In this document: positions 1 to 40,051 of the stretch, one piece after another
How positions within the stretch are numbered: position 1 is the stretch's first letter
Layout of the letters: every line of letters starts with the position of its first letter
Origin: a virus
Length of the DNA: 40,051 nt
Strand: one strand, 5' to 3'
Virus record (IMG/VR): IMGVR_UViG_3300045988_160493
Program-made: the position numbers and the translations under genes
The notes under the pieces: model-generated
Seen by the model: the letters and a program-made list of their open reading frames with translations, nothing else
What the model was told of the DNA's origin: nothing
The model's database searches: none

Positions 1-159
1 AAAAGCATTAAACTAAAAACAGTTTTAGAAAACGTTGAGAGAGTGAGAAAAAATTGTTTGCAAGATGGCAAAAATTTATTTTCCGTTGAAAATTCAAACT
101 TTTTAACGGATTTAGATATTGCGAAAATTATTTACAAATACGCCACAAGAAAGGCTTAA
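1..159 (+). CDS. 3' part of wrap-around small ORF (hypothetical protein)
   Basis: In-frame continuation of 39994 ORF; TAA at 157-159. Confidence 0.4.
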   Translation, partial: KSIKLKTVLENVERVRKNCLQDGKNLFSVENSNFLTDLDIAKIIYKYATRKA

Positions 160-3124: not shown

Positions 3125-3439
3125 ATGAAAAAACAATATAATTTTATAGCATATGAACCAGACGGTTGGTACGAGTGGACAAAAACATTTACGCCTGAAA
3201 AAGACAAAGAATGCTTGTTTATGGAAATTATAGCGGATGAGCGAAAAGGCGAAGTTGTAAGCACATCTTATTATGTCGGACATAATACGGACACTGAATA
3301 TTTCGTATTTTCGGACGGCTCGAAAATCCATAAAAAAGACTTCTGGAACGCGGGCGATTTTAAAAAGGTAATATTATTTAATCCGCACGCACTGCCTGAA
3401 ACTTGCAATATATCGGAATTTAGGATTGTTAAAGACTAA
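3125..3439 (+). CDS. hypothetical protein (104 aa)
   Basis: ORF track. Confidence 0.4.
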   Translation: MKKQYNFIAYEPDGWYEWTKTFTPEKDKECLFMEIIADERKGEVVSTSYYVGHNTDTEYFVFSDGSKIHKKDFWNAGDFKKVILFNPHALPETCNISEFRIVKD

Positions 3440-3457
3440 ACGGAAAGGAAAACAATT

Positions 3458-3718
3458 ATGATAAAAAAGACAAATGAAGAATGGGCGGACATACTTGGAA
3501 GCGATTATTACAGTCTGGAAGCGGACGGCACAAAAACACTGCTTTTTGAGCTTTCGACCGAGGAAATAATCGAAGCAATCGATTTTTATCGGAAAATAAA
3601 AAGTGCCCAAACGACTATGTTTAACACGCCCGAAGAATATGATTATGAAATAAAGAAGTTGCAAGCCGAGCTTTATCGCAGACTTTGCAATAGCCAATTC
3701 AACCCCTTTGTATTTTAG
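3458..3718 (+). CDS. hypothetical protein (86 aa)
   Basis: ORF track; ggaaaggaaaacaattATG RBS. Confidence 0.4.
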   Translation: MIKKTNEEWADILGSDYYSLEADGTKTLLFELSTEEIIEAIDFYRKIKSAQTTMFNTPEEYDYEIKKLQAELYRRLCNSQFNPFVF

Positions 3719-3721
3719 GCT

Positions 3722-4141
3722 ATGAAATACGGAATAATCGCAATCTTGGCAATGGCTACAAACTCCCTATTCGGGGGAGTAGTAGCCGATACTCTTTACC
3801 TTGAAGCAAGAGGAGAGGGAGCGCAAGGCATACGAGCAGTGGCTACGGTGATTTACAACCGAGCAAACGCAAAAAATAAGAGTTTTGAGGCAATTTGCAA
3901 AGAACCAAAACAGTTTAGTTGCTGGAATGGCTCTAAATCACGAGTAATTACCCCTAAAAACGATTTAGACCGCAAAGCCTATAACTTGTGCATAAAAATC
4001 GAAGAAAGCCTTTTAAAAGGCAATTTTGAGCCTTTGGGCGATTGGACACATTATTATGCTTACAAGGTTTGTAATCCGAAGTGGGCGATAGGCGCAAAAA
4101 CTACAACCATAGGCAACCACAAATTTTTGAAAACAAAGTAA
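3722..4141 (+). CDS. SleB-family cell-wall hydrolase (Hydrolase_2) with N-terminal Gly/Ala-rich hydrophobic segment; candidate SAR-type endolysin
   Basis: DTLYLEARGEG...AVATVIYNRA core typical of SleB/cell wall hydrolase domain; N-terminus GIIAILAMATNSLFGGVVA weakly hydrophobic, G/A-rich. Confidence 0.65.
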   Translation: MKYGIIAILAMATNSLFGGVVADTLYLEARGEGAQGIRAVATVIYNRANAKNKSFEAICKEPKQFSCWNGSKSRVITPKNDLDRKAYNLCIKIEESLLKGNFEPLGDWTHYYAYKVCNPKWAIGAKTTTIGNHKFLKTK

Positions 4142-4158
4142 GAAAGGAACGCAAAAAA

Positions 4159-4920
4159 ATGGAAGAAACAAGCTATGTAAATATCCAAGATTGGATGCTT
4201 GAATTGGATTTATCATTGCCAGAAACGGTTATTTTAGCAGTAATTTACGGTTTTAGCCAAGACGGACGAAGCAAATTTAGCGGCTCTTTAAGCTATTTGC
4301 AAAAATGGACAAGGCTAAAAAGCAAGACAAGTGTAATGGCGGCATTAAAAACTTTGGTCGAAAAACAAATTATCAGTAAGCACGACAAAGAAATCAATGG
4401 CGTAAAATTATGTGATTATTCGTACAATGTAGGGGTATATCAAAAATTGATACAGGGTATACCAAAAATTGATACTCATAATATAGAAGATAAAAATATA
4501 GAAGAAAAAGAAAACTATATAAAAGAAAAAGAAGAGCAAAAACGCACCATAGAACAGCAGGCTATTGAAGTCTATAAGGCATACCCACGCCACGTTGGTA
4601 AGCCATTAGCCATTAGAGCTATTAAAACGGCTCTAAAATCGATTTCTTTTGAAGAATTGATTAAACGCACCAGAGACTACGCAGAAGCCGTTAAACGGTC
4701 TCACAAAGACTTGCAATACATTCCTATGCCATCTACTTGGTTTAACCAAGAACGCTACAACGACGACATCTCCGAGCAACTTCCCAGCAATCCATACGCC
4801 ACAGGCAGAGTTGAACGAGTAGAACCGATTAAGCCGAGAACAAAGGCGGAAATACTCCGAGATGAGCCACATCGAGCGCAGGAATTGGCAAACATTGATG
4901 ATGACGATTTTGCATTTTAA
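4159..4920 (+). CDS. replication initiator / replisome-organizer-like protein (N-terminal winged-helix, conserved C-terminal IPMPSTWFNQERYNDD region)
   Basis: ATG 4159 after agaaaggaac RBS (in frame with track ORF 4081); sequence resembles phage replisome organizer N-domain; internal iteron-like direct repeats 4441-4505; DnaC-like loader gene downstream at 9022. Confidence 0.55.
   Translation: MEETSYVNIQDWMLELDLSLPETVILAVIYGFSQDGRSKFSGSLSYLQKWTRLKSKTSVMAALKTLVEKQIISKHDKEINGVKLCDYSYNVGVYQKLIQGIPKIDTHNIEDKNIEEKENYIKEKEEQKRTIEQQAIEVYKAYPRHVGKPLAIRAIKTALKSISFEELIKRTRDYAEAVKRSHKDLQYIPMPSTWFNQERYNDDISEQLPSNPYATGRVERVEPIKPRTKAEILRDEPHRAQELANIDDDDFAF
4441..4505 (+). repeat. iteron-like direct repeats inside the initiator gene (candidate origin)
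   Basis: CAAAAATTGATAC x2 (4441-4453, 4463-4475) and ATATAGAAGA x2 (4481-4490, 4496-4505), then A-rich tract. Confidence 0.45.
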
Positions 4921-10678: not shown

Positions 10679-11148
10679 GAATTATTTTAGACATCAATCC
10701 ACCAAAGAACACAGGGCAATCTGGCAAACGCTTGGGTTGTCCAAGAGGTCGAGCAATGATGTTCGAGACCAAAGAAAGCAAAGACACAAAGGCAATGTTT
10801 TATGCGTTGCTTTACAACAAAAAGCCCCAAACCCCCTTTTCGTGCCCCTTAATCTTTAAACTGTACTACTTCTTTCCCTATAACAGTACAGTAAAGACCA
10901 GTTTGAAGAAAAAGCACGCTATTATCGCAAAAACAACAAAACCCGATTATGACAACATTCCAAAGCAAATTCAGGACGTTATGACAAAGCTCGGCTTTTG
11001 GACTGACGACGCAGTAATTTTTAATGGAGGTTGCGAAAAGTATTTTGCGGAGTTTGGGAAGATTATCATTGAAATTACGCCGACAATGGCAGATTATGAC
11101 TACTCAATGATTTTTGACGAAGAATTTTTAACAAAAGAACAACTATAA
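10675..11148 (+). CDS. rusA: RusA-family Holliday junction resolvase
   Basis: KPDYDNIPKQIQDVMTKLGFWTDDAVIFNG core typical of RusA endodeoxyribonuclease. Confidence 0.7.
   Translation: MRIILDINPPKNTGQSGKRLGCPRGRAMMFETKESKDTKAMFYALLYNKKPQTPFSCPLIFKLYYFFPYNSTVKTSLKKKHAIIAKTTKPDYDNIPKQIQDVMTKLGFWTDDAVIFNGGCEKYFAEFGKIIIEITPTMADYDYSMIFDEEFLTKEQL
11130..11148 (+). repeat. 19-bp direct repeat copy 1 (AACAAAAGAACAACTATAA) = last codons + stop of rusA
   Basis: Exact identity with 11999-12017. Confidence 0.8.
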
Positions 11149-29574: not shown

Positions 29575-30051
29575 TTATTTACTCTTCTTTGAACCCTTTT
29601 TCGCGCCTTTGGTCTTTTTAACGCTCTTTACAGAAATCTCAACTTCGTCGTTCTCTTCCTGTTCCTGCGTCTCAACCAAAATCTCGCCATTCTTGTTGGC
29701 AACTTTTACGTCTTTGCCAACGTCGGCGATTGTGCGCTGAGCGGACTTGTCCTTTTCCTGCATATCTTCAATTACGGCGTCTTGATTTGTTTTCAAACCA
29801 ACTACCGAAATCCAGCAGCCCTTTTCAAAGGCTACGAAAGCAGGATTTTTCCTCAAAACTTCCAACTCCTCGTCGGAAACCAGAGTGCCAAAACCGCTCG
29901 GAACAACAATGCCGTCCCAAACATTAGCTCCTCCACCTATTTTAATCTTCCGCACTACGGTCTTGTTCCCAAGCGCGTCGGTTTCATAGGTCTCAAAGTT
30001 AACACTTTGGGACAGCGTTGATACAATCTTATGTGTTTTCTGCTTAGCCAT
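29575..30051 (-). CDS. structural protein with Lys-rich C-terminal tail (158 aa)
   Basis: KSVKKTKGAKKGSKKSK tail; directly downstream of capsid gene. Confidence 0.3.
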   Translation of the reverse strand: MAKQKTHKIVSTLSQSVNFETYETDALGNKTVVRKIKIGGGANVWDGIVVPSGFGTLVSDEELEVLRKNPAFVAFEKGCWISVVGLKTNQDAVIEDMQEKDKSAQRTIADVGKDVKVANKNGEILVETQEQEENDEVEISVKSVKKTKGAKKGSKKSK

Positions 30052-30088
30052 ATTATGTCGCCTTTATGTTAAGTTTTATATCGATTGT

Positions 30089-31201
30089 TTATGCGCCTAC
30101 CTTGCGAACTACGCCAATGCCGTATCCAACAAACGCACCAGCCGTAGCATTCGAGTAGGTTTCCTTAAAGTATGTGTCGCGGCGTTCAAAGCCAACCAAG
30201 AACATTCTCTGCTGAACAAACTGGTCAACATTCTTTTCGCCGTCAACTTCTTCCGCGACAACGTACACAACATTCTGACCGCCCAACGCGCCGTCAAACT
30301 GCGGAACGTAATGGATTTCGCCTTTCGGATATGCGCCCTTGAACCAAGCTTCAACCGAGCCAGCAAAGCCATTTGCGCCATACTGCGGAACAGCAGTCAT
30401 CGACTGAGAAGCCGCCATTGGGAGAATGAGCTTAAATGCGTCGGTGCTTGCGTCAAAGTTGCCATTGAGCTTCAATTCAAGCTCGCGAACCATACCGCGA
30501 ATGTCGTTGACGATTTCAATGTAAGTCTTGTCTTTGAGCATTGTCGAGCCAGACGCGCCAACAGACAATGTGCCGTAAGCGGGAAGTCTCGGGTCATTCA
30601 GCAAGCCGTAGTTAGCCTTGTTGCCGTAATTGAAACCGTTGAACGCAACCAAATTCCTCTGGATTTCCAAAGCATTGGTCGTTGCAACCATTTTCTTTTC
30701 CTTTGCGTCAAGCCTCATACGAGCAACCTGAGCTGCTTCCAAAGTGCCAACCGAAACAGTTGAGAGGAAGCGCACAACAGAACGCTTGTTGAAGTTGACA
30801 TTGAAGTTGCTGTTTTCACCGTTGACATAGTCGCCATACAACGCTACGTCGCCGAGAGTTTCAACTTCGGGAACAACTACTTCTTCGTCTTCCCAAGAGC
30901 CAGCATTTACAACGCCCATAATCTCGTCAGCCTTGCGACCAGCATAAATGGTCTTGATGACTTTCGGAGACCACCACTGCAAAAGCTGAACAGGAGTGCC
31001 AACTGAGGGAACAGTCGCCATTTCAGCGGCGTCAAAGCCATAAGACGAGGCGTTGCGGATAATTTCATTCTTTGCAACGTCTGAGAAGCCCAAGCCAGCC
31101 GCCGAGAATACTCCAACGTCCGCTTCGTCGTATGTAGCCTTGTAAAGGTCAGCTTTTACGCCTGCCCCGATACGAGATTTTTCTTCTAAATTACATTTCA
31201 T
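30089..31201 (-). CDS. major capsid protein (DUF2184-like family)
   Basis: 370 aa; downstream of DUF2213-like scaffold gene, the conserved DUF2213-DUF2184 pairing; position after portal. Confidence 0.6.
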   Translation of the reverse strand: MKCNLEEKSRIGAGVKADLYKATYDEADVGVFSAAGLGFSDVAKNEIIRNASSYGFDAAEMATVPSVGTPVQLLQWWSPKVIKTIYAGRKADEIMGVVNAGSWEDEEVVVPEVETLGDVALYGDYVNGENSNFNVNFNKRSVVRFLSTVSVGTLEAAQVARMRLDAKEKKMVATTNALEIQRNLVAFNGFNYGNKANYGLLNDPRLPAYGTLSVGASGSTMLKDKTYIEIVNDIRGMVRELELKLNGNFDASTDAFKLILPMAASQSMTAVPQYGANGFAGSVEAWFKGAYPKGEIHYVPQFDGALGGQNVVYVVAEEVDGEKNVDQFVQQRMFLVGFERRDTYFKETYSNATAGAFVGYGIGVVRKVGA

Positions 31202-31223
31202 CTTTCTTGCCTTTCTTTAAAAC

Positions 31224-32027
31224 TTAAACTTGCGGGATAAAGCCAATCTTTACAACCGAACCAGCAGTACCGCCAACTACAACTTGGCAACCCTTAATCT
31301 GTGTCTGACCAGAGCTTGCTGTGCCAGCGGAAAGAACGCCAGTTGCATTCGTGAAGAATACGCCGTCGCCAACGTTAGCGTCGTTTGCCAAAGCCACGAA
31401 AATGTAGCCAGACTTAGCCATTGCGCCAGAAACGCCGTCGGGAACGTTGAGTGTCGGGACAAGACCGTTGTAAATCGCCTGATTGTGCGGATTTACAAAT
31501 ATGCCCAAGAACGCTCCTGTTCCGCCCATAACAGCCGAAGAGCCGTCAGCGTCAAGCGTAAACGCTCTGCCGATTGTAGCATTTGTACCCGCGATTGCGT
31601 CAACGCCACCAGACATATCAGTGATTGTTATATTTTCGCTGTCGGTAGAAAGCGTATAGCCATTGCCAACAACGCCCGTCTGTCTCGCTGTCAAAGCGAC
31701 CACTGCGGAAGAAGCCACTCCCGAAAAGAACGGGGAAGTCGCGTTAATCGCCGTCGCCAAGTTTGCAGCAGTACCGCCCGCATTTGCGCCAATTTCTACT
31801 TCATAGGGAGTAGCAGGAGTGCCACTTACAAATGTATAGTCAACACCGTTTACCACAACCTTTTCTGCCGCCGTCGGCTGGTTATCTATTTCAATAGAAC
31901 CAGTAGCCGCAACAGCCGCCGAACCATTAGAACCCTTTACAACATAAGCAACAGCCGATTTGAGAGCATCGTTAACCCAAGTCCCAATCGTGCCGATTGC
32001 CTGTTTGATATTTACCTGTGTTTGCAT
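31224..32027 (-). CDS. Ala/Gly/Thr-rich structural protein (267 aa), possible head decoration
   Basis: Position between scaffold and capsid genes; low-complexity A/G/T/V composition. Confidence 0.35.
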   Translation of the reverse strand: MQTQVNIKQAIGTIGTWVNDALKSAVAYVVKGSNGSAAVAATGSIEIDNQPTAAEKVVVNGVDYTFVSGTPATPYEVEIGANAGGTAANLATAINATSPFFSGVASSAVVALTARQTGVVGNGYTLSTDSENITITDMSGGVDAIAGTNATIGRAFTLDADGSSAVMGGTGAFLGIFVNPHNQAIYNGLVPTLNVPDGVSGAMAKSGYIFVALANDANVGDGVFFTNATGVLSAGTASSGQTQIKGCQVVVGGTAGSVVKIGFIPQV

Positions 32028-35412: not shown

Positions 35413-38346
35413 TCAAAACATTCCTTTTTTTCCAAAAGCAATTTCTCCTGCTTGTGTCATCATATCGCATATATCGTCGTGTTTATGACTGCCGTCTCCG
35501 CACAATAATACCATTTCCGCAATGATTTCTTTGCTTCTTGGGTCGTTTTTATCGTTTGGCAACAGCACATTTCCCGCCTCCAAGTAAGGAAATAGCGAAT
35601 TGTTCCACTTTGTCATCTTGTCAAAGCCCTTATCTTTCACTGGAATGACCGAAACTCCGCCCTCTCGCCTCATTCTTTGTATCAATTCCATACCAGAAGC
35701 CTTATCTTCAATGTAAAATACGTTTGCAGGCAAGCCTCTCACGCCCCCACTCCACCTATTCTTAAAGGCAAAGAACTCTTTGAGCAAATCTACCGCTTCA
35801 ATCTTCTTGTGCAATAAATCTATAAGCCTTAAATCGTTCTTTTCGGTTATTGCCCACAATCCCACCGCCGTATAGTCATTCCATTCATTAGTTTTAAATG
35901 CGGTATCGGCAGTGAAGAACACTTTTTTGTACCTAACAGTGTCCAAAGGATTGTAAAACTTAAACCATTCCTCCTTTACAAGCTCGCCGCCCAAAACAAC
36001 AGGCGATTGTTGCATTTGAGCCGCAAAAATGTATGGAGATTGCTTTTTTTCTTTGAGCAAGACTTCTGTTGGGGATTTCCATTCCCAGTTGCTTTTTGGC
36101 GGATTTACATCTTCATTAAGCGCAGGAACGCGAATAATCTTCCAATCGTCGGCTTCATTCGCTTCAATATAGCCTACCAAGTCGTCAACAGCAAGCCTTT
36201 GCATAATTAGCACAATAGGCGTCTTTGAGGGATTGTTTAAACGCTTTTTAATGACCGCTTGGTAGTTATCCTCTACTTTCTTTTTCTCCGCTTCCGAATT
36301 AAAGAATTTAGCATTGAGAGGGTCGTCGATAATAAAAGCTCCTCCGAACCTATCACCGATTTTTCCACAATTATGCACAAAAACTCTTGACATTCCAACA
36401 AACAAGTTATTGACTGTTCTTAAAGTTAAACAATAACTGGGTTTATTATGAATATCATAGATAGCAAATATGTTCCTATTCCTCAATTTAAAGGATATTT
36501 CGTTTCCAGAGACGGAAGCGTTTATTCTTCTAAAACAAGAAAAGAGCTTCGCCCTTATCTTTCGCGTAAAGGCTACAAATGCGTTGACCTTTGCGTTTGT
36601 GGGAAAAGAGTTAAAACTCGTATCCACCAACTGGTTGCTTGGACATTTCTTGGAGCGCAACCTACTGGAATGGTAGTTAGACATCTTGACGGAAATGCAC
36701 TCAACAATTCTGTATCCAATCTTGCCTATGGAACACAATCCGATAATGAGCAAGATAGCATAAGACATTATGGACACCACGCCAGATACCACAAAATTAC
36801 GCCAGAACAAGCCAAAGAAATTGCGCAGGACAGACGCCCCTATAAACAGATTGCTAAGGATTATGGTCTTAATTTTCGATATGTAGCCGACATTAAGGCT
36901 GGAATTTATTGGGGTCGTATTACTGAGGGTCTCAGATTTCAAAGAAGCCGTAGTGTCGCGTGGAACAAAACGCAATTTTCTCCTAAGGATACTAAGTTTA
37001 TCTGCGACAAAAATAATTCTCGAAAAGATATAATAGAACGGTTTGGCATAAGCAAATCCGTTATTTCTCGCATCAGAAAGCAGAACAGAGTTGACGCTTA
37101 ATTCGTCGGCTCTTTTCTCGCCCTCCGTAGTGTGAAATATATGGTCGTTGGTGGCGTCTAAAACCTCGCCGTCCTCAAAGATTATGCGCTTGTATTGGGA
37201 AATGTCATTCTTGACGTAGCGTTCAATCTCTTCAAAGGAAATCTTCTCGCCGTCAAATGTCATTATTTTAACTTTCTTCTTTCCCTCTACAATGTCGCCA
37301 ATCTTTTCAACGCCATTTTCCGTCCACACAGGAGTATCTTTATCGAAACAGCCAAAACCTGTCATAGCACCCCCCATTGGAGAAGCCCTATAAGTGCCTT
37401 TCTCTTTCGTCTCCCACAATGCCTTTGCTTCGGTATTGCTGTTCATTTGAACGCCAAAGAGCTTTTGATAAAATGGGTGTCGAATTATATTCAAAATGTC
37501 GTCCGACATCTTGTTTGTTATGCGCTCTTCATAGCAAGTATAGATAAAATTGCAAGTGGAGTCTATCCCAAAGCACCACGAAATCCACATAATCATTAGA
37601 ATACTGTTGTGGGTAGGCTTTAATCTATTGCCAACGCAATAAACGCCGCCCTCAACTTGGATACAATTCCCAATTTTGCCAAAATCGCCACGCTCAACGC
37701 TTTCAAAGAAAATTTCTTTTTTATGGGCTTTTAAATCTCTTCTCTGCCTTGCAACATCATTGCTTATTTCTGGCAATAAGTATCTGTCGCGATAGAAACC
37801 TTTTTCAAGCATTTCTTTTGTCTCAATCGTCCTCTCTTTGCGCAAATGCCTATCATAAACAACCCATTCGTGATTTTCGTGGCAATAGATTTCGTCTCCG
37901 TCGGAAAATCTTACCTTGCAATTCGCAGGAGCTTTCTCGCTAACTGCCAGAACCTTAACAAATTTCCCGCTTGGACTTAACACATAATCCCCAACGACTA
38001 TTTCAGCGTGCGTTATCCAACCCCTCTTTGTAAGCACAGGTGTTTCGTCCGCTATAAGCTTCCCCCAGCGCGGAGGTATGCTAATAGCTAAATTCTTCCT
38101 TTCTGGATTGCCGTAAACAAATTCTTCCAAAGACTTTATGATTTCTTTGTGAAACCAGCAAGTGCGAAAGTAATCCTTGTATATCGCGCGATAAAAGAAT
38201 TGAATGTAAAACTCAAAATCGCTCTTTAACAACGCAGACGTGTAAGGCAACATCTCATCGCTAAGGTATTTGTCAAAATCAATGGTGTTGTTCTCCCCAT
38301 ACAACCCATTCCCATAATTAACCCTTGCTTTACTTTCCATACCCAA
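35413..38346 (-). CDS. terL: terminase large subunit precursor (977 aa) interrupted by two inteins
   Basis: Extein carries Walker A PPRWGK(S), Walker B-like AFIIDDP, coupling motif FAAQMQQSP, nuclease-domain acidic residues FFTADTAF, YIEDKASG, HDDICD; two Hint-domain insertions. Confidence 0.85.
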   Translation of the reverse strand: MGMESKARVNYGNGLYGENNTIDFDKYLSDEMLPYTSALLKSDFEFYIQFFYRAIYKDYFRTCWFHKEIIKSLEEFVYGNPERKNLAISIPPRWGKLIADETPVLTKRGWITHAEIVVGDYVLSPSGKFVKVLAVSEKAPANCKVRFSDGDEIYCHENHEWVVYDRHLRKERTIETKEMLEKGFYRDRYLLPEISNDVARQRRDLKAHKKEIFFESVERGDFGKIGNCIQVEGGVYCVGNRLKPTHNSILMIMWISWCFGIDSTCNFIYTCYEERITNKMSDDILNIIRHPFYQKLFGVQMNSNTEAKALWETKEKGTYRASPMGGAMTGFGCFDKDTPVWTENGVEKIGDIVEGKKKVKIMTFDGEKISFEEIERYVKNDISQYKRIIFEDGEVLDATNDHIFHTTEGEKRADELSVNSVLLSDARNNGFAYAKPFYYIFSRIIFVADKLSILRRKLRFVPRDTTASLKSETLSNTTPINSSLNVGYISKIKTIILSNLFIGASVLRNFFGLFWRNFVVSGVVSIMSYAILLIIGLCSIGKIGYRIVECISVKMSNYHSSRLRSKKCPSNQLVDTSFNSFPTNAKVNAFVAFTRKIRAKLFSCFRRINASVSGNEISFKLRNRNIFAIYDIHNKPSYCLTLRTVNNLFVGMSRVFVHNCGKIGDRFGGAFIIDDPLNAKFFNSEAEKKKVEDNYQAVIKKRLNNPSKTPIVLIMQRLAVDDLVGYIEANEADDWKIIRVPALNEDVNPPKSNWEWKSPTEVLLKEKKQSPYIFAAQMQQSPVVLGGELVKEEWFKFYNPLDTVRYKKVFFTADTAFKTNEWNDYTAVGLWAITEKNDLRLIDLLHKKIEAVDLLKEFFAFKNRWSGGVRGLPANVFYIEDKASGMELIQRMRREGGVSVIPVKDKGFDKMTKWNNSLFPYLEAGNVLLPNDKNDPRSKEIIAEMVLLCGDGSHKHDDICDMMTQAGEIAFGKKGMF
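36370..37350 (-). mobile_element. intein 2 (about 327 aa, TerL residues 333-659), canonical class 1, with its central region antisense to an HNH gene
   Basis: Block A CFDKDTPVWTENGVEKIGDIVEG, block B VLDATNDHIFHTTEGEKRADEL, block F/G IFAIYDIHN...FVGMSRVFVHN followed by +1 Cys (CGKIGDRF). Confidence 0.7.
36448..37101 (+). CDS. HNH homing endonuclease (NUMOD4 + HNH_3 type), on the strand opposite to terL, nested inside intein 2
   Basis: PQFKGYFVSRDGSVYS (NUMOD4-like), HQLVAWTFLG...VRHLDGNALNNSVSNLAYGTQSDN (HNH), C-terminal helix-turn-helix-like ISKSVISRIRK. Confidence 0.8.
   Translation: MNIIDSKYVPIPQFKGYFVSRDGSVYSSKTRKELRPYLSRKGYKCVDLCVCGKRVKTRIHQLVAWTFLGAQPTGMVVRHLDGNALNNSVSNLAYGTQSDNEQDSIRHYGHHARYHKITPEQAKEIAQDRRPYKQIAKDYGLNFRYVADIKAGIYWGRITEGLRFQRSRSVAWNKTQFSPKDTKFICDKNNSRKDIIERFGISKSVISRIRKQNRVDA
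37606..38058 (-). mobile_element. mini-intein 1 (about 151 aa, TerL residues ~97-247) inserted in the Walker A P-loop; class-3-like (no N-terminal Cys/Ser)
   Basis: Block A LIADETPVLTKRGW...VVGDYV, block B DEIYCHENHEW (Trp at B:12), block F GNCIQVEGG (Cys at F:4), block G KPTHN then +1 Ser. Confidence 0.6.
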
Positions 38347-38385
38347 ACTGTACTATACTGTACTATTCCATTAAAGATTGTTTTG

Positions 38386-39075
38386 CTATTCTTCGGTATC
38401 TATTCGCCGTGGAGTTTCTTCCACCACTTCCCCCTCGACTACTTCCTCTTCCTTGCGCCTTACGTCCTCAATAGCTCTCCCAAAGCTTTCTCGCAATTCC
38501 TTTAATTGCTCCATATTCAATGAGTGCTTGTGGTCAACAGTACCGCTGTGGTTCACCACAACGTTCTTTCCGTATTCTTCCTTGTTCAACCTCTCCAACA
38601 CCCATTTGCTATTGTCTATGTCCTTGCCCTCGATGACGCTCTTTGCCACATTCTCCGTAGCCCTCGCCACCAATTCTTCTCTCCACAAATTTATCCTCTC
38701 CCTCAGCAATGTGTACTTCTTGCACAACTTCTGGAATTTCCCCATAAGTATCCCCGCATAAGCGCATATCGCCTTGTCCCCCATTCTCAGCTTCGCACCA
38801 TACTGTATCTTCAAAAACAGCGGAACAGTCAAATACACATAATAAACACTATTCGACCTCTCTATCTCCACTATATCCTCGCTTATCTCCCTGAATACTT
38901 CCTTGTCTTCCTCCTCCAAGCTCTTAAAATCATTATTGCTCCTAAGGCGGTTATTATATTCGTCTATCCCTACTCTCAAATCCCGACATACCCTATCGCT
39001 CTTGCCGTAATCTATCAGTCGAGGATTTCCCCCAACTCCAATCTTTTCATTATCTTTGTCGCCCTTTTCTCCCAT
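38386..39075 (-). CDS. putative terminase small subunit (229 aa), first gene of leftward operon
   Basis: Position immediately upstream of terL; charged helical protein; aaaggaaa RBS. Confidence 0.35.
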   Translation of the reverse strand: MGEKGDKDNEKIGVGGNPRLIDYGKSDRVCRDLRVGIDEYNNRLRSNNDFKSLEEEDKEVFREISEDIVEIERSNSVYYVYLTVPLFLKIQYGAKLRMGDKAICAYAGILMGKFQKLCKKYTLLRERINLWREELVARATENVAKSVIEGKDIDNSKWVLERLNKEEYGKNVVVNHSGTVDHKHSLNMEQLKELRESFGRAIEDVRRKEEEVVEGEVVEETPRRIDTEE

Positions 39076-39306
39076 AAGTTTCCTTTCTTTCTCTCACTAC
39101 AACCACACCCACACCACCATTGTCAAGCCTTTTCTATCCCCTCTCCCCATAAATCCACCAAAAATCTCCATAACTCCCTCTCCCACAACACCTTATCCCC
39201 ACTCCCCCTCGCCTCCCTCACAAAAACACCATAATAGTACAGTACACACAGTGAATTTTATTTCCCTCTACACCAATCACTTCCGTAAAAACACACAACT
39301 TTGTTC

Positions 39307-39334
39307 TTGACACCACAAATTTTTTTTCTATAAT
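39307..39334 (+). promoter_or_regulatory. near-consensus sigma70-type promoter TTGACA-N16-TATAAT firing rightward
   Basis: TTGACA at 39307-39312, TATAAT at 39329-39334; followed by three stem-loops (39337-39357, 39359-39386, 39416-39434). Confidence 0.55.
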
Positions 39335-39738
39335 AACCACCGTCAGCAAAACGGTGGTGCAGTAGCTTCAACAAGAAGCTCACTGCTTGCCACAAGTTTT
39401 GGTAGGTGTGTTTAGTCAAAGCTCTCAGCTTTGATACTTTCTAACAACACACTACCACGCCTTAAATGAAAAACATAATTCTACCAACCCAACAACTCTC
39501 ACCTACCTCCCCCACACAGCACACCACCTCTTGCTTCCTTGCTCCCAACCACTCAACTCTACTATTCTGTTCTACACCAAAACAACCACTCAAATCATAA
39601 GTACGCACGCAAGCAACTTGCTAATCTCTACAAACTGCTTAGTATCAACTACTTCCGAAAAATTTTTATATATGCGAAGTACACATACCCCGCCCCCTCC
39701 TGCTTGCCGTTTACTGCAAAAAGCTATGGGGGGGGTAC

Positions 39739-39756
39739 TGTTCTACGTGGAACAAT
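39739..39756 (+). promoter_or_regulatory. second copy of the CACGTG-centred palindrome (TGTTCTACGTGGAACAAT), preceded by a G8 tract and a GC-rich hairpin
   Basis: Matches 13501-13518 at 16/17 positions. Confidence 0.4.
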
Positions 39757-39993
39757 TAAATTAAATATAAAGTGTGAGAAAGAGGCAAAGTATGTTGTTT
39801 TTGGCAATGCTATAATAAATAGAATTTATATAAACAATGAATTGAAAGGCGGTTGCAATAGATAAGCGCAAGGCAATAAGTCAAGCATAAAGTGAATAAA
39901 AAAAATATGCAAAAAATTCAAAAAATACGATTTTTTTCTTGCAATGTTGGAAAGAATATGCGAAGATATAAGCATAATCAAGAAAGGTAAGAT

Positions 39994-40051
39994 ATGAAAA
40001 GCATTAAACTAAAAACAGTTTTAGAAAACGTTGAGAGAGTGAGAAAAAATT
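39994..40051 (+). CDS. 5' part of a small ORF that continues across the window junction to position 159 (54 aa total)
   Basis: ATG at 39994 preceded by aaaggtaag RBS-like purine stretch; reading frame continues in phase into positions 1-159 because the last 55 nt equal the first 55 nt. Confidence 0.4.
   Translation, partial: MKSIKLKTVLENVERVRKN
39997..40051. repeat. 55-bp terminal overlap identical to positions 1-55 (circular-assembly / linearisation overlap rather than a biological repeat)
   Basis: Exact identity seen directly. Confidence 0.9.

Follow-up and report, generated by a model that had tools for sequence, protein, structure and literature searches.

In an uncultured gut phage, the gap that separates the packaging genes from the early genes (918 nt, positions 39076-39993) carries very little G on much of its + strand, which raises the question of what such a one-sided composition in non-coding DNA might be for. 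We analyzed the gap within the window, by which we mean the whole 40,051-nt stretch of DNA. The window is a circular assembly with its first 55 nt repeated as its last 55 nt, and the rightward gene that starts at 39994 therefore runs on at position 1. On the other side, terS (phrog_4102/1482) starts at 39075 on the - strand. We conclude that the gap is a composite non-coding control region common to a clade of uncultured gut myoviruses, and that it is a mosaic of conserved signals, not one G-quadruplex element. From terS onward the order is a late-promoter-like TTGACA box, the G-free block 1, a conserved upstream element, a consensus sigma-70 promoter, a predicted structured RNA of ~100 nt, the G-poor block 2, a conserved element termed E2, lineage-specific repeats and an AT-rich early promoter region. 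The features are as follows.

39076-39119, - strand: terS 5' leader, with a Shine-Dalgarno AGAAAGG (complement of + 39082-39088) read from the sequence
39120-39133, - strand: conserved box AAAAGGCTTGACAA, with a -35-like TTGACA (39127 to 39122) after an A-tract
39128-39225, + strand: core of block 1, G-free and 40% C, with C-runs alternating with A/T-runs
39226-39306, + strand: conserved element upstream of the promoter, including ATAGTACAGT (39234-39243) and AACTTCCGTAAAAA
39307-39334, + strand: predicted sigma-70 promoter, TTGACA-16 nt-TATAAT, a 12/12 consensus match
39339-39447, + strand: structured RNA of ~100 nt, a predicted fold without known family
39441-39687, + strand: block 2, a CA/CT-rich, G-poor tract downstream of the structured RNA
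39478-39486, - strand: candidate leftward extended -10 TGGTAGAAT, a consensus match from a relaxed promoter scan
39655-39735, no strand: E2, a conserved element of ~80 nt where the GC skew changes sign, made up of AAAAATTTTTATATATGCGAAGT (39658-39680), the C-tract CCCCGCCCCC (39688-39697), AAAAAGCTAT (39718-39727) and G8 (39728-39735)
39739-39754, no strand: palindrome TGTTCTACGTGGAACA, directly after E2
39755-39993, + strand: AT-rich region before the early operon, with a candidate extended -10 TGCTATAAT (39808-39816) and a putative promoter role
39670-39679 and 39956-39965, + strand: repeated ATATGCGAAG boxes, with a variant at 39905

Gene content and base composition

The sequence-only reading had described the gap as gene-free and the reading frames within it as compositional artefacts, and both claims were borne out. 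The gap holds no conserved ORF; its internal ORFs (84, 53, 48 and 44 aa) are short and of low complexity, have no counterpart in the relatives L009, L017 and L010, and are not preceded by GAAAGG. Ribosome-binding sites in this phage recurrently show (A)GAAAGG, with AAAGG found upstream of 23 of the 55 start codons. Coding potential was rejected as the main explanation. The Rfam 15 covariance models gave no match at the gathering threshold anywhere in the window, where a permissive search returned a single sub-threshold match (glmS, 12.9 bits against a threshold of 37), and a tRNA/tmRNA search of the window found none.

The first 265 nt of the gap (39076-39340) contain 11 G, or 4.2%, compared to 18.7% for the genome (binomial P ~1e-12). 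Block 1, taken with the upstream element (39128-39306, + strand), has 3.9% G and 40% C, and most of its few G's lie within that element or the TTGACA box; block 2 has 6.9% G and 34% C (P ~1e-7 for G-poverty). The longest G-free run of the window (83 nt, 39128-39210) lies here, the second-longest, elsewhere, being 61 nt. The other intergenic gaps of the window have 12-27% G and none has the composition of this one. Stretches with at least 35% C and at most 8% G occur on the + strand only, from 38292 to 39621, the mirror-image composition is found nowhere in the window, and only one tract in 1.7 Mb of unrelated viral contigs is comparable. The + strand had been described as nearly G-free for about 600 nt. 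The skew is indeed far beyond chance, but the G-poor zone consists of two blocks split by an island of ~130 nt (39307-39440) with normal G content, and the last ~290 nt (39700-39993) are not G-poor but C-poor and A-rich, with a skew of +0.35.

In the gap, neither the A and T frequencies nor the total GC (44%) depart from normal, and C alone takes the place of G. The skew is a strand-orientation constraint, with the C of nearly all G:C pairs placed on the + strand. Skew of the same sign extends leftward into terS (38386-39075, - strand), whose coding-strand GC skew of 0.49 is the highest among 49 genes and is still 0.40 at third codon positions. A sense-strand bias of G over C is seen genome-wide, and the tract is the extreme of the same bias. 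Phage genomes are known for pyrimidine (dC-rich) clusters on the template strand and for purine loading of the mRNA-synonymous strand, as described by Szybalski. The tract is similar in that the strand with its dC-rich clusters is the template of the neighboring late operon and its boundary falls where the direction of transcription switches. It differs in that one base is almost wholly excluded from 100-350 nt of non-coding DNA, which is not a statistical bias of genes.

A composition of this kind could be a neutral by-product of mutation bias, such as transcription- or replication-associated deamination in an unconstrained spacer. In sign the skew agrees with the sense-strand bias of the leftward genes next to it, and it fades with distance into terS and terL. 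Deamination would, however, enrich T on the C-depleted strand, and the AT skew is ~0; the - strand of the tract has 40% G, twice the genome value; the other non-coding gaps are ordinary; the boundaries of the tract are sharp and coincide with conserved motifs; and the tract persists in lineages of only 44-51% portal identity. We regard this reading as highly improbable, and mutational drift was rejected as the main explanation on these grounds.

Conservation in relatives and the discrete signals

Conservation of the skew in related phages had been put forward as a sign of function. A comparable tract lies beside terS in every relative with this terS family, and a tract of composition equivalent to block 1 adjoins terS in L009, L017, L010, L016, L213, L215, L218, L219 and L220. 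The tract is present in lineages with only 44-51% portal identity and absent from the more distant portal relatives L221-L229 (31-37%). Its sequence cannot be aligned from one clade to another, and what is conserved is its composition and strandedness only. The skew is therefore kept where the sequence no longer aligns, and by that yardstick the tract would be functional. The N-terminus of TerS is likewise hypervariable between lineages, and in L213 a skew of 0.4-0.5 runs all through terS. L001-L007 and L205 (99.8-100% identical to the window in the region) and L212 (97%) are too close to be informative on substitution patterns.

Searches beyond this clade returned little. Blastn of the region against the INPHARED phages gave no match, tblastn-style scans of IMG/VR and GTDB genomes with TerS found none, and the closest cultured phages are PB1-like, with 33% portal identity. 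The only genome match was a 46-kb contig, probably phage, binned to a Saccharibacteria MAG. Exact 15-16-nt patterns did recur in IMG/VR (66 loci for CTTGCCACAAGTTTT and more than 120 for TGTTCTACGTGGAACA), and all were rejected as chance matches by blastn against the window. Literature searches yielded nothing specific on cos sites with G-homopolymers or on G-poor tracts in phages.

At the terS side, a TTGACA preceded by an A-run is found upstream of terS in most lineages compared (TTTACA in the L016/L206-type), at about 45-75 nt from the gene in most lineages and ~205 nt in L016, with flanks that cannot be aligned. The box AAAAGGCTTGACAA is probably the late promoter of the terS operon. No canonical -10 was found downstream of it, only a TA-initial hexamer 17-22 nt further on, and a search of the small early proteins against Pfam and NCBIfam gave no late activator or sigma-like regulator.

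The element at 39226-39306 is nearly invariant across the window, L212, L205, L009 and L017, and its ATAGTACAGT motif is over-represented (6 matches with at most 1 mismatch, against 1.1 expected), with tandem sites at 38347-38366. The promoter that follows is also a 12/12 match at the homologous position in L009 and L017. The RNA at 39339-39447 is predicted to fold through a long-range helix, (C/U)AAAAC-GGUGG paired with CCAC-AAGUUUU(G/A), around a variable hairpin, and ends in a hairpin AAAGC/GCUUU without a U-tail; its MFE is -39 kcal/mol (z = -4.4 against shuffles). RNAalifold placed 20 pairs, 4 of them with compensatory changes, on an alignment of only 4 sequences from 3 lineages. The RNA has no Rfam match, its covariance model matches only the window, L212, L009 and L017, and a 26-nt pattern taken from it gave no matches. 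Target prediction against all translation-initiation regions gave nothing above the shuffled background. The sequence-only reading had suggested a structured RNA as one function of the skewed stretch. One is indeed predicted, in the G-normal island behind the consensus promoter; the skewed tracts themselves, in contrast, are the least structured RNA in the genome. Block 2 was found only in lineages with the promoter and the RNA, and between the window and L009/L017 its composition is kept and its sequence is not.

That reading had also pointed to candidate G-quadruplex and i-motif formers, and such structures on the - and + strands, respectively, could act as a structural switch or a regulator landing pad. 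The - strand does carry G3-5 runs, with GGGAGT/GGGGAT-type motifs in the core of block 1. Three relatives (L009, L017 and L010) each have one or two canonical four-run motifs near terS, above composition-matched shuffles (P 0.004-0.04), and C-runs in block 1 are modestly enriched when summed over lineages (73 observed, 53 expected). The proposal was not supported in the window, where neither strand holds a canonical motif (four runs of at least 3, loops of 1-7 nt) and the sole long-loop candidate is matched by 33% of composition-matched shuffles. Runs of C3 or more are as frequent as composition predicts in block 1 (9 against 8.6) and fewer in block 2 (5 against 8.0), and this too was rejected as the main explanation. 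Four runs take ~25 nt, not the total exclusion of G over 200-600 nt, and the excess in relatives falls at non-homologous positions, the motif positions not being conserved. We consider a G-quadruplex or i-motif function very unlikely.

Proposed transcription across the tract

The reading that we favor, tentatively, is that the skew acts on RNA as a direction-specific Rho filter, which we regard as possible and somewhat short of an even chance. The rightward (+) RNA of the tract would be C-rich, G-poor and essentially free of structure, like a Rho loading (rut) site. In block 2, Rho would release the RNA from the consensus promoter, which would be abundant and has no U-tailed terminator, short of E2 and the early operon; in block 1 it would release any antisense transcript leaving terS rightward. 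The leftward, terS-sense RNA is C-poor and would therefore offer neither Rho loading nor GC hairpin terminators, so that it would read through into the late operon. The scheme presupposes production of these RNAs, a host equipped with Rho and termination at these sites, and the roles of the TTGACA box and E2 are likewise inferred.

Rut sites have been described by C>G bubbles of at least ~80 nt with a (YC)N9-13 chain of at least 4, together with high %C, %CA, %CT and %YC and low %G and %GG (Nadiras et al. 2018, PMC6144790). The + strand of the tract has C>G bubbles of 262 nt (38999-39260) and 271 nt (39409-39679), the second and third longest in the genome, and the three longest are all on the + strand within 38530-39679. 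The excess of C over G is 36% in block 1 and 27% in block 2, compared to a genome maximum of 19%; the YC content of block 1 is 28%, and the longest (YC)N9-13 chain is 9 in block 1 and 6 in block 2. The + RNA folds at -0.017 kcal/mol per nt in block 1 and -0.056 in block 2, whereas the genome mean is -0.18 +/- 0.05. If this lack of structure is selected, the + RNA would be the relevant molecule. Since the 83 nt without G include spacers that differ between relatives, the constraint is more likely on a single strand or a strand-tracking process; a duplex-binding array or bent DNA is less likely because either orientation of a G:C pair would be tolerated. Block 2 directly follows the 12/12 promoter and an RNA whose last hairpin has no U-tail. 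Rut sites have no sequence consensus, and conservation of the tract by composition alone is as expected for them.

Several observations count against the Rho filter. No credible + strand promoter was found to the left of block 1, the best being a 9/12 match at 38903 inside terS, and the rightward RNA of block 1, which is the universal part of the feature, is hypothetical for that reason. The texture of block 1 is unlike that of block 2, with enriched CC, AA and TT runs, and together with the C-run excess of the relatives it hints at a motif- or structure-based role. The tract (200-350 nt) is also longer than a rut site needs. That the tract accompanies a single terS family, and that terS is itself skewed, would fit a packaging role, discussed below, equally well. 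Compared with rut sites such as rutA/rutB of lambda tR1, the tract is alike in specifying a C-rich, G-poor, unstructured, YC-dimer-rich RNA of at least 80 nt that is defined by composition, and block 2 has no conserved ORF, is apparently untranslated and lies downstream of a strong predicted promoter. It differs in being far more extreme and longer (4-7% G over 180-330 nt, when classical rut sites have ~14% G), in being a fixed genome landmark that adjoins terS, and in the lack of a promoter upstream of block 1 in the Rho-sensitive direction. Placed right after a strong predicted promoter and ahead of what would be a zone of Rho-type termination, the structured RNA recalls the processive-antitermination RNA elements HK022 put and lambda nut. 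The analogy is purely positional, as the RNA has no sequence or structural similarity to them (no Rfam match) and occurs in one subclade only.

Alternatively, the functional molecule could be the leftward RNA, G-rich and C-poor, or its R-loop, a reading that we hold to be unlikely. A promoter lying right of the tract and directed leftward (TGGTAGAAT, 39486-39478, or one near E2) would yield a transcript rich in G-clusters on a C-rich template. This would either persist as an R-loop and prime replication, in the manner of ColE1, the T4 ori and the mtDNA CSB, or give the late operon a long leader that is proof against Rho. Consistent with such a promoter, a TAGAAT-type -10 on the - strand is conserved just past the 3' end of the structured RNA: L009 retains TGGTAGAAT, and both L009 and L017 have GTGTAGAAT variants amid otherwise unconserved sequence. 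It remains a weak consensus match with no -35. A transcript from TGGTAGAAT would run antisense along the full length of the structured RNA and continue through block 1 in the direction of terS. The - strand of block 1 is 40% G with G3-5 clusters; the - RNA of block 2 is ordinary in folding energy (-0.19 kcal/mol per nt). The structured + RNA would then be a cis-antisense regulator in the window's subclade, by analogy with ColE1 RNA I, whose arrangement the strong, constitutive predicted promoter and the ~100-nt stem-loop RNA resemble. The antisense module is, however, absent from most lineages that keep the tract.

Replication signals bear on the same reading. The skew changes sign and the cumulative GC skew reaches its minimum at E2 and the divergent junction, both of which are confounded by gene orientation. 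Of the further marks of a theta-type origin, iterons and an AT-rich unwinding element, there are counterparts in part: E2 is flanked by AT-rich DNA and by lineage-specific, iteron-like repeats in relatives, with a single palindrome in the window, and the genome has a DnaD-like initiator gene (4081-4920) and a DnaC-like loader gene; no RNase H site or primer signal was recognisable. Set beside ColE1 RNA I/RNA II and the R-loop origins T4 ori(uvsY) and mtDNA CSB II, the gap shares a strong predicted promoter and, behind it, a stem-loop RNA of ~100 nt, potentially the antisense partner of a longer transcript that is G-rich and runs over a C-rich template. It differs in the weakness of the leftward promoter match and in the absence of the antisense module from most tract-bearing lineages.

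E2, a possible packaging role and the right-hand part of the gap

E2 is present once per genome, with identical layout, at the 10 loci tested, including the distant L213 and L219, and a copy in L220 was seen by eye. Lineages differ in its homopolymer, which is G8 in some and, read on the same strand, C5-8 in others; the orientation of the flanking GCTAT is constant, and this suggests a duplex-DNA signal. The sequence-only reading had named a packaging or origin region among the possible functions of the stretch, and E2 is a candidate cos/pac or origin signal. Its layout is kept in all lineages, and a conserved cis element near terS is what would be looked for in a cos or pac site.

The gap could be a packaging-initiation region like lambda cosN-cosB-Nu1, in which E2 would be recognised or cleaved by the terminase (as cos or pac). 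TerS/TerL would then assemble, and translocation start, on the skewed tract between E2 and terS together with the skewed terS itself. We think this rather unlikely, with an appreciable chance nonetheless. It would fit the occurrence of the tract in every lineage with this terS family and its absence from L221-L229, E2 being the most widely conserved element and apparently a duplex signal, the shared variability of the tract and the TerS N-terminus, and a terS that is skewed even at synonymous sites. On the other hand, no TerS site is known to require depletion of G from one strand, and to our knowledge known cosB and pac sites show no one-strand base exclusion. Recognition of a duplex leaves the strict strandedness unexplained, and G-runs have no significant ~10.5-nt phasing; no period rose above shuffles, except marginally in L016.

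The ends of contigs also bear on packaging. About 10 of the ~17 contigs examined have an end in E2 itself or no more than 430 nt to the right of it: L006 at 39699, L016 in the C-run, L219 55 nt past the C-run, L013 and L012 11 and 75 nt past the palindrome, and L007 and L005 at 39798 and 39858. These ends are scattered and do not coincide, which counts against a packaging terminus, and several assemblies are circular with k-mer overlaps (55 nt in the window, 113 nt in L003). The zone to the right of E2 is fragile in assembly because it is AT-rich, repeat-bearing and strain-variable. A further likeness, by analogy, is to herpesvirus pac1, which has a T-rich core between G-tracts (PMC13595911). 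As a conserved cis element, E2 shares with lambda cosN-cosB-Nu1 and pac1 an A/T run set between G:C homopolymers and a position a few hundred nt ahead of the small terminase gene, from which a protein-free spacer separates it. It differs in having no defined TerS-binding repeats.

A broader proposal, which we consider quite unlikely, joins these parts: lying between E2, as a genome-end or origin signal, and the terminase genes, the tract would be a conserved, composition-encoded, strand-specific device, either a Rho 'transcriptional diode' or an R-loop-forming initiation zone. As the latter, its G-rich leftward RNA could prime replication or mark the start of packaging, and the consensus-promoter RNA would be a ColE1 RNA I-like antisense governor in the window's subclade. 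In either form the cis element would be defined purely by which strand carries C, with no sequence consensus.

Should the Rho filter hold, base composition alone would suffice for the phage to keep transcription through its main control region one-way, and the tract would be a portable, sequence-free insulator. As a marker of terS and the late promoter, and probably of the genome end, it would also aid the annotation of uncultured phages. Were the tract simply an extreme rut site, it would be an instructive, ordinary case of Rho-based insulation. Three parts of the gap further lend themselves to testing: a new candidate small RNA of the phage, preceded by a perfect consensus promoter; a conserved ~80-nt G:C-homopolymer element that may be the cos/pac or origin of an uncharacterised group of gut myoviruses; and the repeated, operator-like ATAGTACAGT motif.

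The sequence directly after E2 varies with lineage. The palindrome TGTTCTACGTGGAACA is common to the window and the distant L010 lineage, 4-6 GTAGTACAG repeats take its position in L009 and L017, and other lineage-specific repeats do so in L215, L218 and L216.

Composition of the gap beside terS

The phage is a ~40 kb, myovirus-like, complete circular assembly; the ends of the window (1-55 and 39997-40051) are an identical 55-nt k-mer overlap, so that the circle is ~39,996 bp. The same genome was assembled repeatedly from human gut samples (23 contigs), and its nearest cultured relatives, PB1-like phages, reach no more than 33% portal identity. The gap at 39076-39993 lies between a leftward structural operon (tail sheath, major head, protease, portal, TerL, TerS) and a rightward early/replication operon (DnaD-like initiator, DnaC-like loader, SSB, Sak, RusA and others), whose first gene starts at 39994, runs on through position 1 and stops at 157. 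By its GC range the genome is a strong compositional mosaic: the early operon opens at 23-30% (1-1500), and the head genes reach 48-51% (30000-32000).

We found no conserved genes in the gap, in agreement with the sequence-only reading that had called it gene-free and its ORFs apparently compositional; the ORFs are not kept in relatives and lack a ribosome-binding motif, and coding was ruled out. The + strand holds 11 G in 265 nt at 39076-39340 (P about 1e-12) and 17 G in 247 nt at 39441-39687 (P about 1e-7), including a G-free run of 83 nt at 39128-39210. The claimed G-depletion was therefore real and well outside chance expectation, but the single near-G-free stretch of ~600 nt was not, since an island of ~130 nt with ordinary G content splits it into two blocks. 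The final 290 nt of the gap are A-rich and C-poor, with the skew reversed in sign. At the other end the skew extends into terS; none of the 49 genes has a higher coding-strand GC skew (0.49), and each of its three codon positions shows it.

The gap is ordinary in its A, T and total GC content, with only G swapped for C; the constraint is on which strand holds the C of each G:C pair. No other intergenic gap of the genome has such composition. Sequence windows with C of at least 35% and G of at most 8% are confined to 38292-39621 on the + strand, and the mirror composition occurs nowhere in the genome. The background for comparison was 1.7 Mb of unrelated viral sequence, from contigs that had been fetched incidentally; only one 180-nt tract there reached comparable criteria. 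This sole case, an intergenic tract with 33% G and 4% C (IMG/VR contig L132, 8481-8660), has a genomic context unlike that of the window.

Anatomy of the gap and its conservation

Features of the gap, left to right (window coordinates)
38386-39075, - strand: terS, last gene before the gap
Directly before terS, - strand: terS leader with the usual phage ribosome-binding motif (A)GAAAGG
39120-39133, - strand: conserved box AAAAGGCTTGACAA, a -35-like TTGACA with an A-tract upstream, lacking a canonical -10
39128-39225, + strand: block 1 core, G-free, C-runs alternating with A/T-runs
39226-39306, + strand: 80-nt conserved element including ATAGTACAGT
39307-39334, + strand: perfect promoter TTGACA-16-TATAAT
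39339-39447, + strand: putative structured RNA, ~100 nt, MFE -39 kcal/mol, z = -4.4
39486-39478, - strand: candidate leftward extended -10 TGGTAGAAT
39441-39687, + strand: block 2, G-poor, CA/CT-rich
39655-39735: E2, a conserved element with AAAAATTTTTATATATGCGAAGT, CCCCGCCCCC, AAAAAGCTAT and G8 in that order
39739-39754: palindrome TGTTCTACGTGGAACA
AT-rich region before the first early gene: extended -10 TGCTATAAT at 39808-39816, plus repeated ATATGCGAAG boxes

Judged by sequence, the promoter at 39307-39334 is a textbook sigma-70 site, and the AAAAGGCTTGACAA box is probably an activator-dependent late promoter. The putative structured RNA shows compensatory changes in 4 of 20 consensus pairs (four sequences), and its last hairpin has no U-tail. 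It had no match in Rfam, belongs to no described family and is a new candidate phage small RNA.

The ATAGTACAGT motif has six matches at up to one mismatch (1.1 expected), with sites at 38347-38366 (-), 39234-39243 (+), 39556-39565 (-) and 10860-10892. The spacer between terS and terL consists of two exact copies in tandem, immediately ahead of the TTG start of TerL, and another exact copy precedes the consensus promoter; the motif is probably bound by some phage DNA-binding protein. Block 1 of the relative L009 contains ACTGTACTATACTGTACTATT. Genome-wide, the motif for ribosome binding, sited 8-12 nt before start codons, is (A)GAAAGG(A) and not GGAGG; a 16S rRNA tail CCUUUCU would be its complement, which may hint at the host.

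Relatives were gathered through TerS and portal homologues. TerS identity to the window was 95% (L212), 81% (L009/L008), 77% (L017/L018), 52% (L218), 51% (L016), 49% (L206/L216 and L215) and 48% (L010-L015); portal identity was 51% (L213/L219) and 44% (L220). Every relative collected has a gene-free gap upstream of terS, roughly 500-1,250 nt long where both flanks are present. In the tract adjoining terS (100-450 nt), one base (C when the terS-sense strand is read) stands at only 2-7% and its partner at 29-46%. The skew thus passed the check in related phages that had been proposed, although the tract sequence is not alignable from clade to clade. Portal relatives at a greater distance (31-37% identity) without this terS family also lack the tract. 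The TTGACA box is a conserved island in most lineages and E2 is found in all, whereas the promoter, structured RNA and block 2 occur together only in the window/L212/L009/L017 subclade, outside which a covariance model found no copy of the RNA. In L220 the tract runs without a break for ~330 nt, with the TTGACA box at one end and E2 at the other. The feature is real, rare, composition-based and conserved across the clade, within a mosaic of conserved signals; the earlier suggestion of a likely function is supported.

The sole GTDB genome match for the portal was L213 (JAFWIF010000003.1, 46.1 kb), a contig in the bin of a sheep-ileum MAG labelled 'Candidatus Saccharibacteria'. Its terS-tract-E2 order is that of the window, and given this layout it is probably a whole phage genome.

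A proposed direction-specific filter for Rho

Neutral drift or mutation bias is hardly credible as the source of the tract: AT skew is ~0, - strand G rather than T is doubled, the boundaries are sharp and the genome's other spacers are ordinary. The G-quadruplex and i-motif formers proposed from the sequence fared poorly. Neither strand of the window has a canonical motif, the single long-loop G-quadruplex candidate was matched by 33% of shuffles, and C-run counts are as composition predicts, so that quadruplex potential is not supported as the conserved property. Relatives show a modest C-run/motif excess in block 1 only, and we consider such structures very unlikely. A curvature/phasing test of the tract gave nothing significant.

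The total exclusion of one base from one strand, even at positions that vary freely among relatives, is not what recognition of duplex DNA would readily produce; a product that is single-stranded, or a process that tracks one strand, fits better. A rival reading sees here a G-rich leader transcribed leftward, or an R-loop origin, for which the structured RNA would be an antisense partner like ColE1 RNA I; we regard it as unlikely. Nowhere in the genome is folding weaker than in the + strand RNA of block 1 (-0.017 kcal/mol per nt) and block 2 (-0.056), the genome value being -0.18 +/- 0.05, and the - strand RNA of block 2 is average.

The best-supported reading, which we hold tentatively, is that the tract is a direction-specific Rho filter. 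Published compositional criteria for Rho loading (PMC6144790) ask for a C>G bubble of at least 80 nt and a (YC)N9-13 chain of at least 4, with %C and %YC high and %G and %GG low. The blocks surpass them, with C minus G of 36% (block 1) and 27% (block 2) against a genome maximum of 19%, and (YC)N9-13 chains of 9 and 6. Rightward RNA over the tracts would be an idealised rut site. Since no intrinsic terminator follows the promoter at 39307-39334, its strong rightward RNA would be expected to be released in block 2, ahead of E2 and the early operon, and antisense rightward transcription leaving terS would be released in block 1. The C-poor leftward RNA could neither load Rho nor make GC hairpins, and so would read through to the late operon. 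Block 2 and the promoter are present together and absent together, which backs the Rho filter. Block 1 is the universal part of the feature, and its rightward transcript is hypothetical.

Of known systems, a rut site or C>G bubble comes closest to how the tract would work, and Szybalski's dC-clusters on template strands are the wider pattern of which it is an extreme local instance. Its composition is that of a rut site, but it is not classed as one, because what defines the class is a function, Rho-dependent release. What is new is an extreme, position-fixed, composition-only element, together with the candidate small RNA.

E2, contig ends and the TerL ORF

The terminal homopolymer of E2 differs among lineages, being either G8 or C5-8 when the same strand is read, with the adjoining GCTAT constant in orientation. 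This swap argues that E2 would be read as duplex DNA and that the C-tract/G8 hairpin of the window is probably not the conserved feature. Directly right of E2, lineages differ in their repeats, with four to six copies of GTAGTACAG (L009/L017), two of GTTAGnCnnGnCTAAC, three of CATGCGTA or the palindrome, followed by AT-rich DNA. In the L010 lineage, ~100 nt of pure A/T (G+C at most 12%; locus coordinates 3400-3500) between E2 and the early promoter is a candidate for an extreme DNA-unwinding element.

About 10 of ~17 contigs examined, independent assemblies from several lineages, end within E2 or up to 430 nt to its right (L006 at 39699, L007 at 39798, L005 at 39858, the window at 39996 and L003 at 167 in window coordinates; also L016 inside the C-run, L012/L013 and L219). 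The cluster may mark true genome termini or a terminal repeat, and it is of note for a rival reading in which E2 would be cos/pac in a zone of packaging initiation resembling cosB; we hold that reading to be unlikely. The ends are scattered rather than coincident, and fragile assembly would account for them well enough, since the DNA there is rich in A/T, bears repeats and varies between strains. The likeness of E2 to cos/pac is confined to its location and to an A/T run between homopolymers (compare herpesvirus pac1, PMC13595911).

The TerL ORF (35413-38346, -) encodes 977 aa, compared to 493-499 aa in L010/L016, and appears to carry two intein-like insertions (roughly aa 97-250 and aa 335-670), the second with a weak Hint match at aa 325-428. 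A 217-aa NUMOD4/HNH_3 homing endonuclease (36448-37101, +) lies on the opposite strand within the second insertion, and the TerL frame is unbroken across it. TerL is 646 aa in L009 and 986 aa, with LAGLIDADG_3, in L017.
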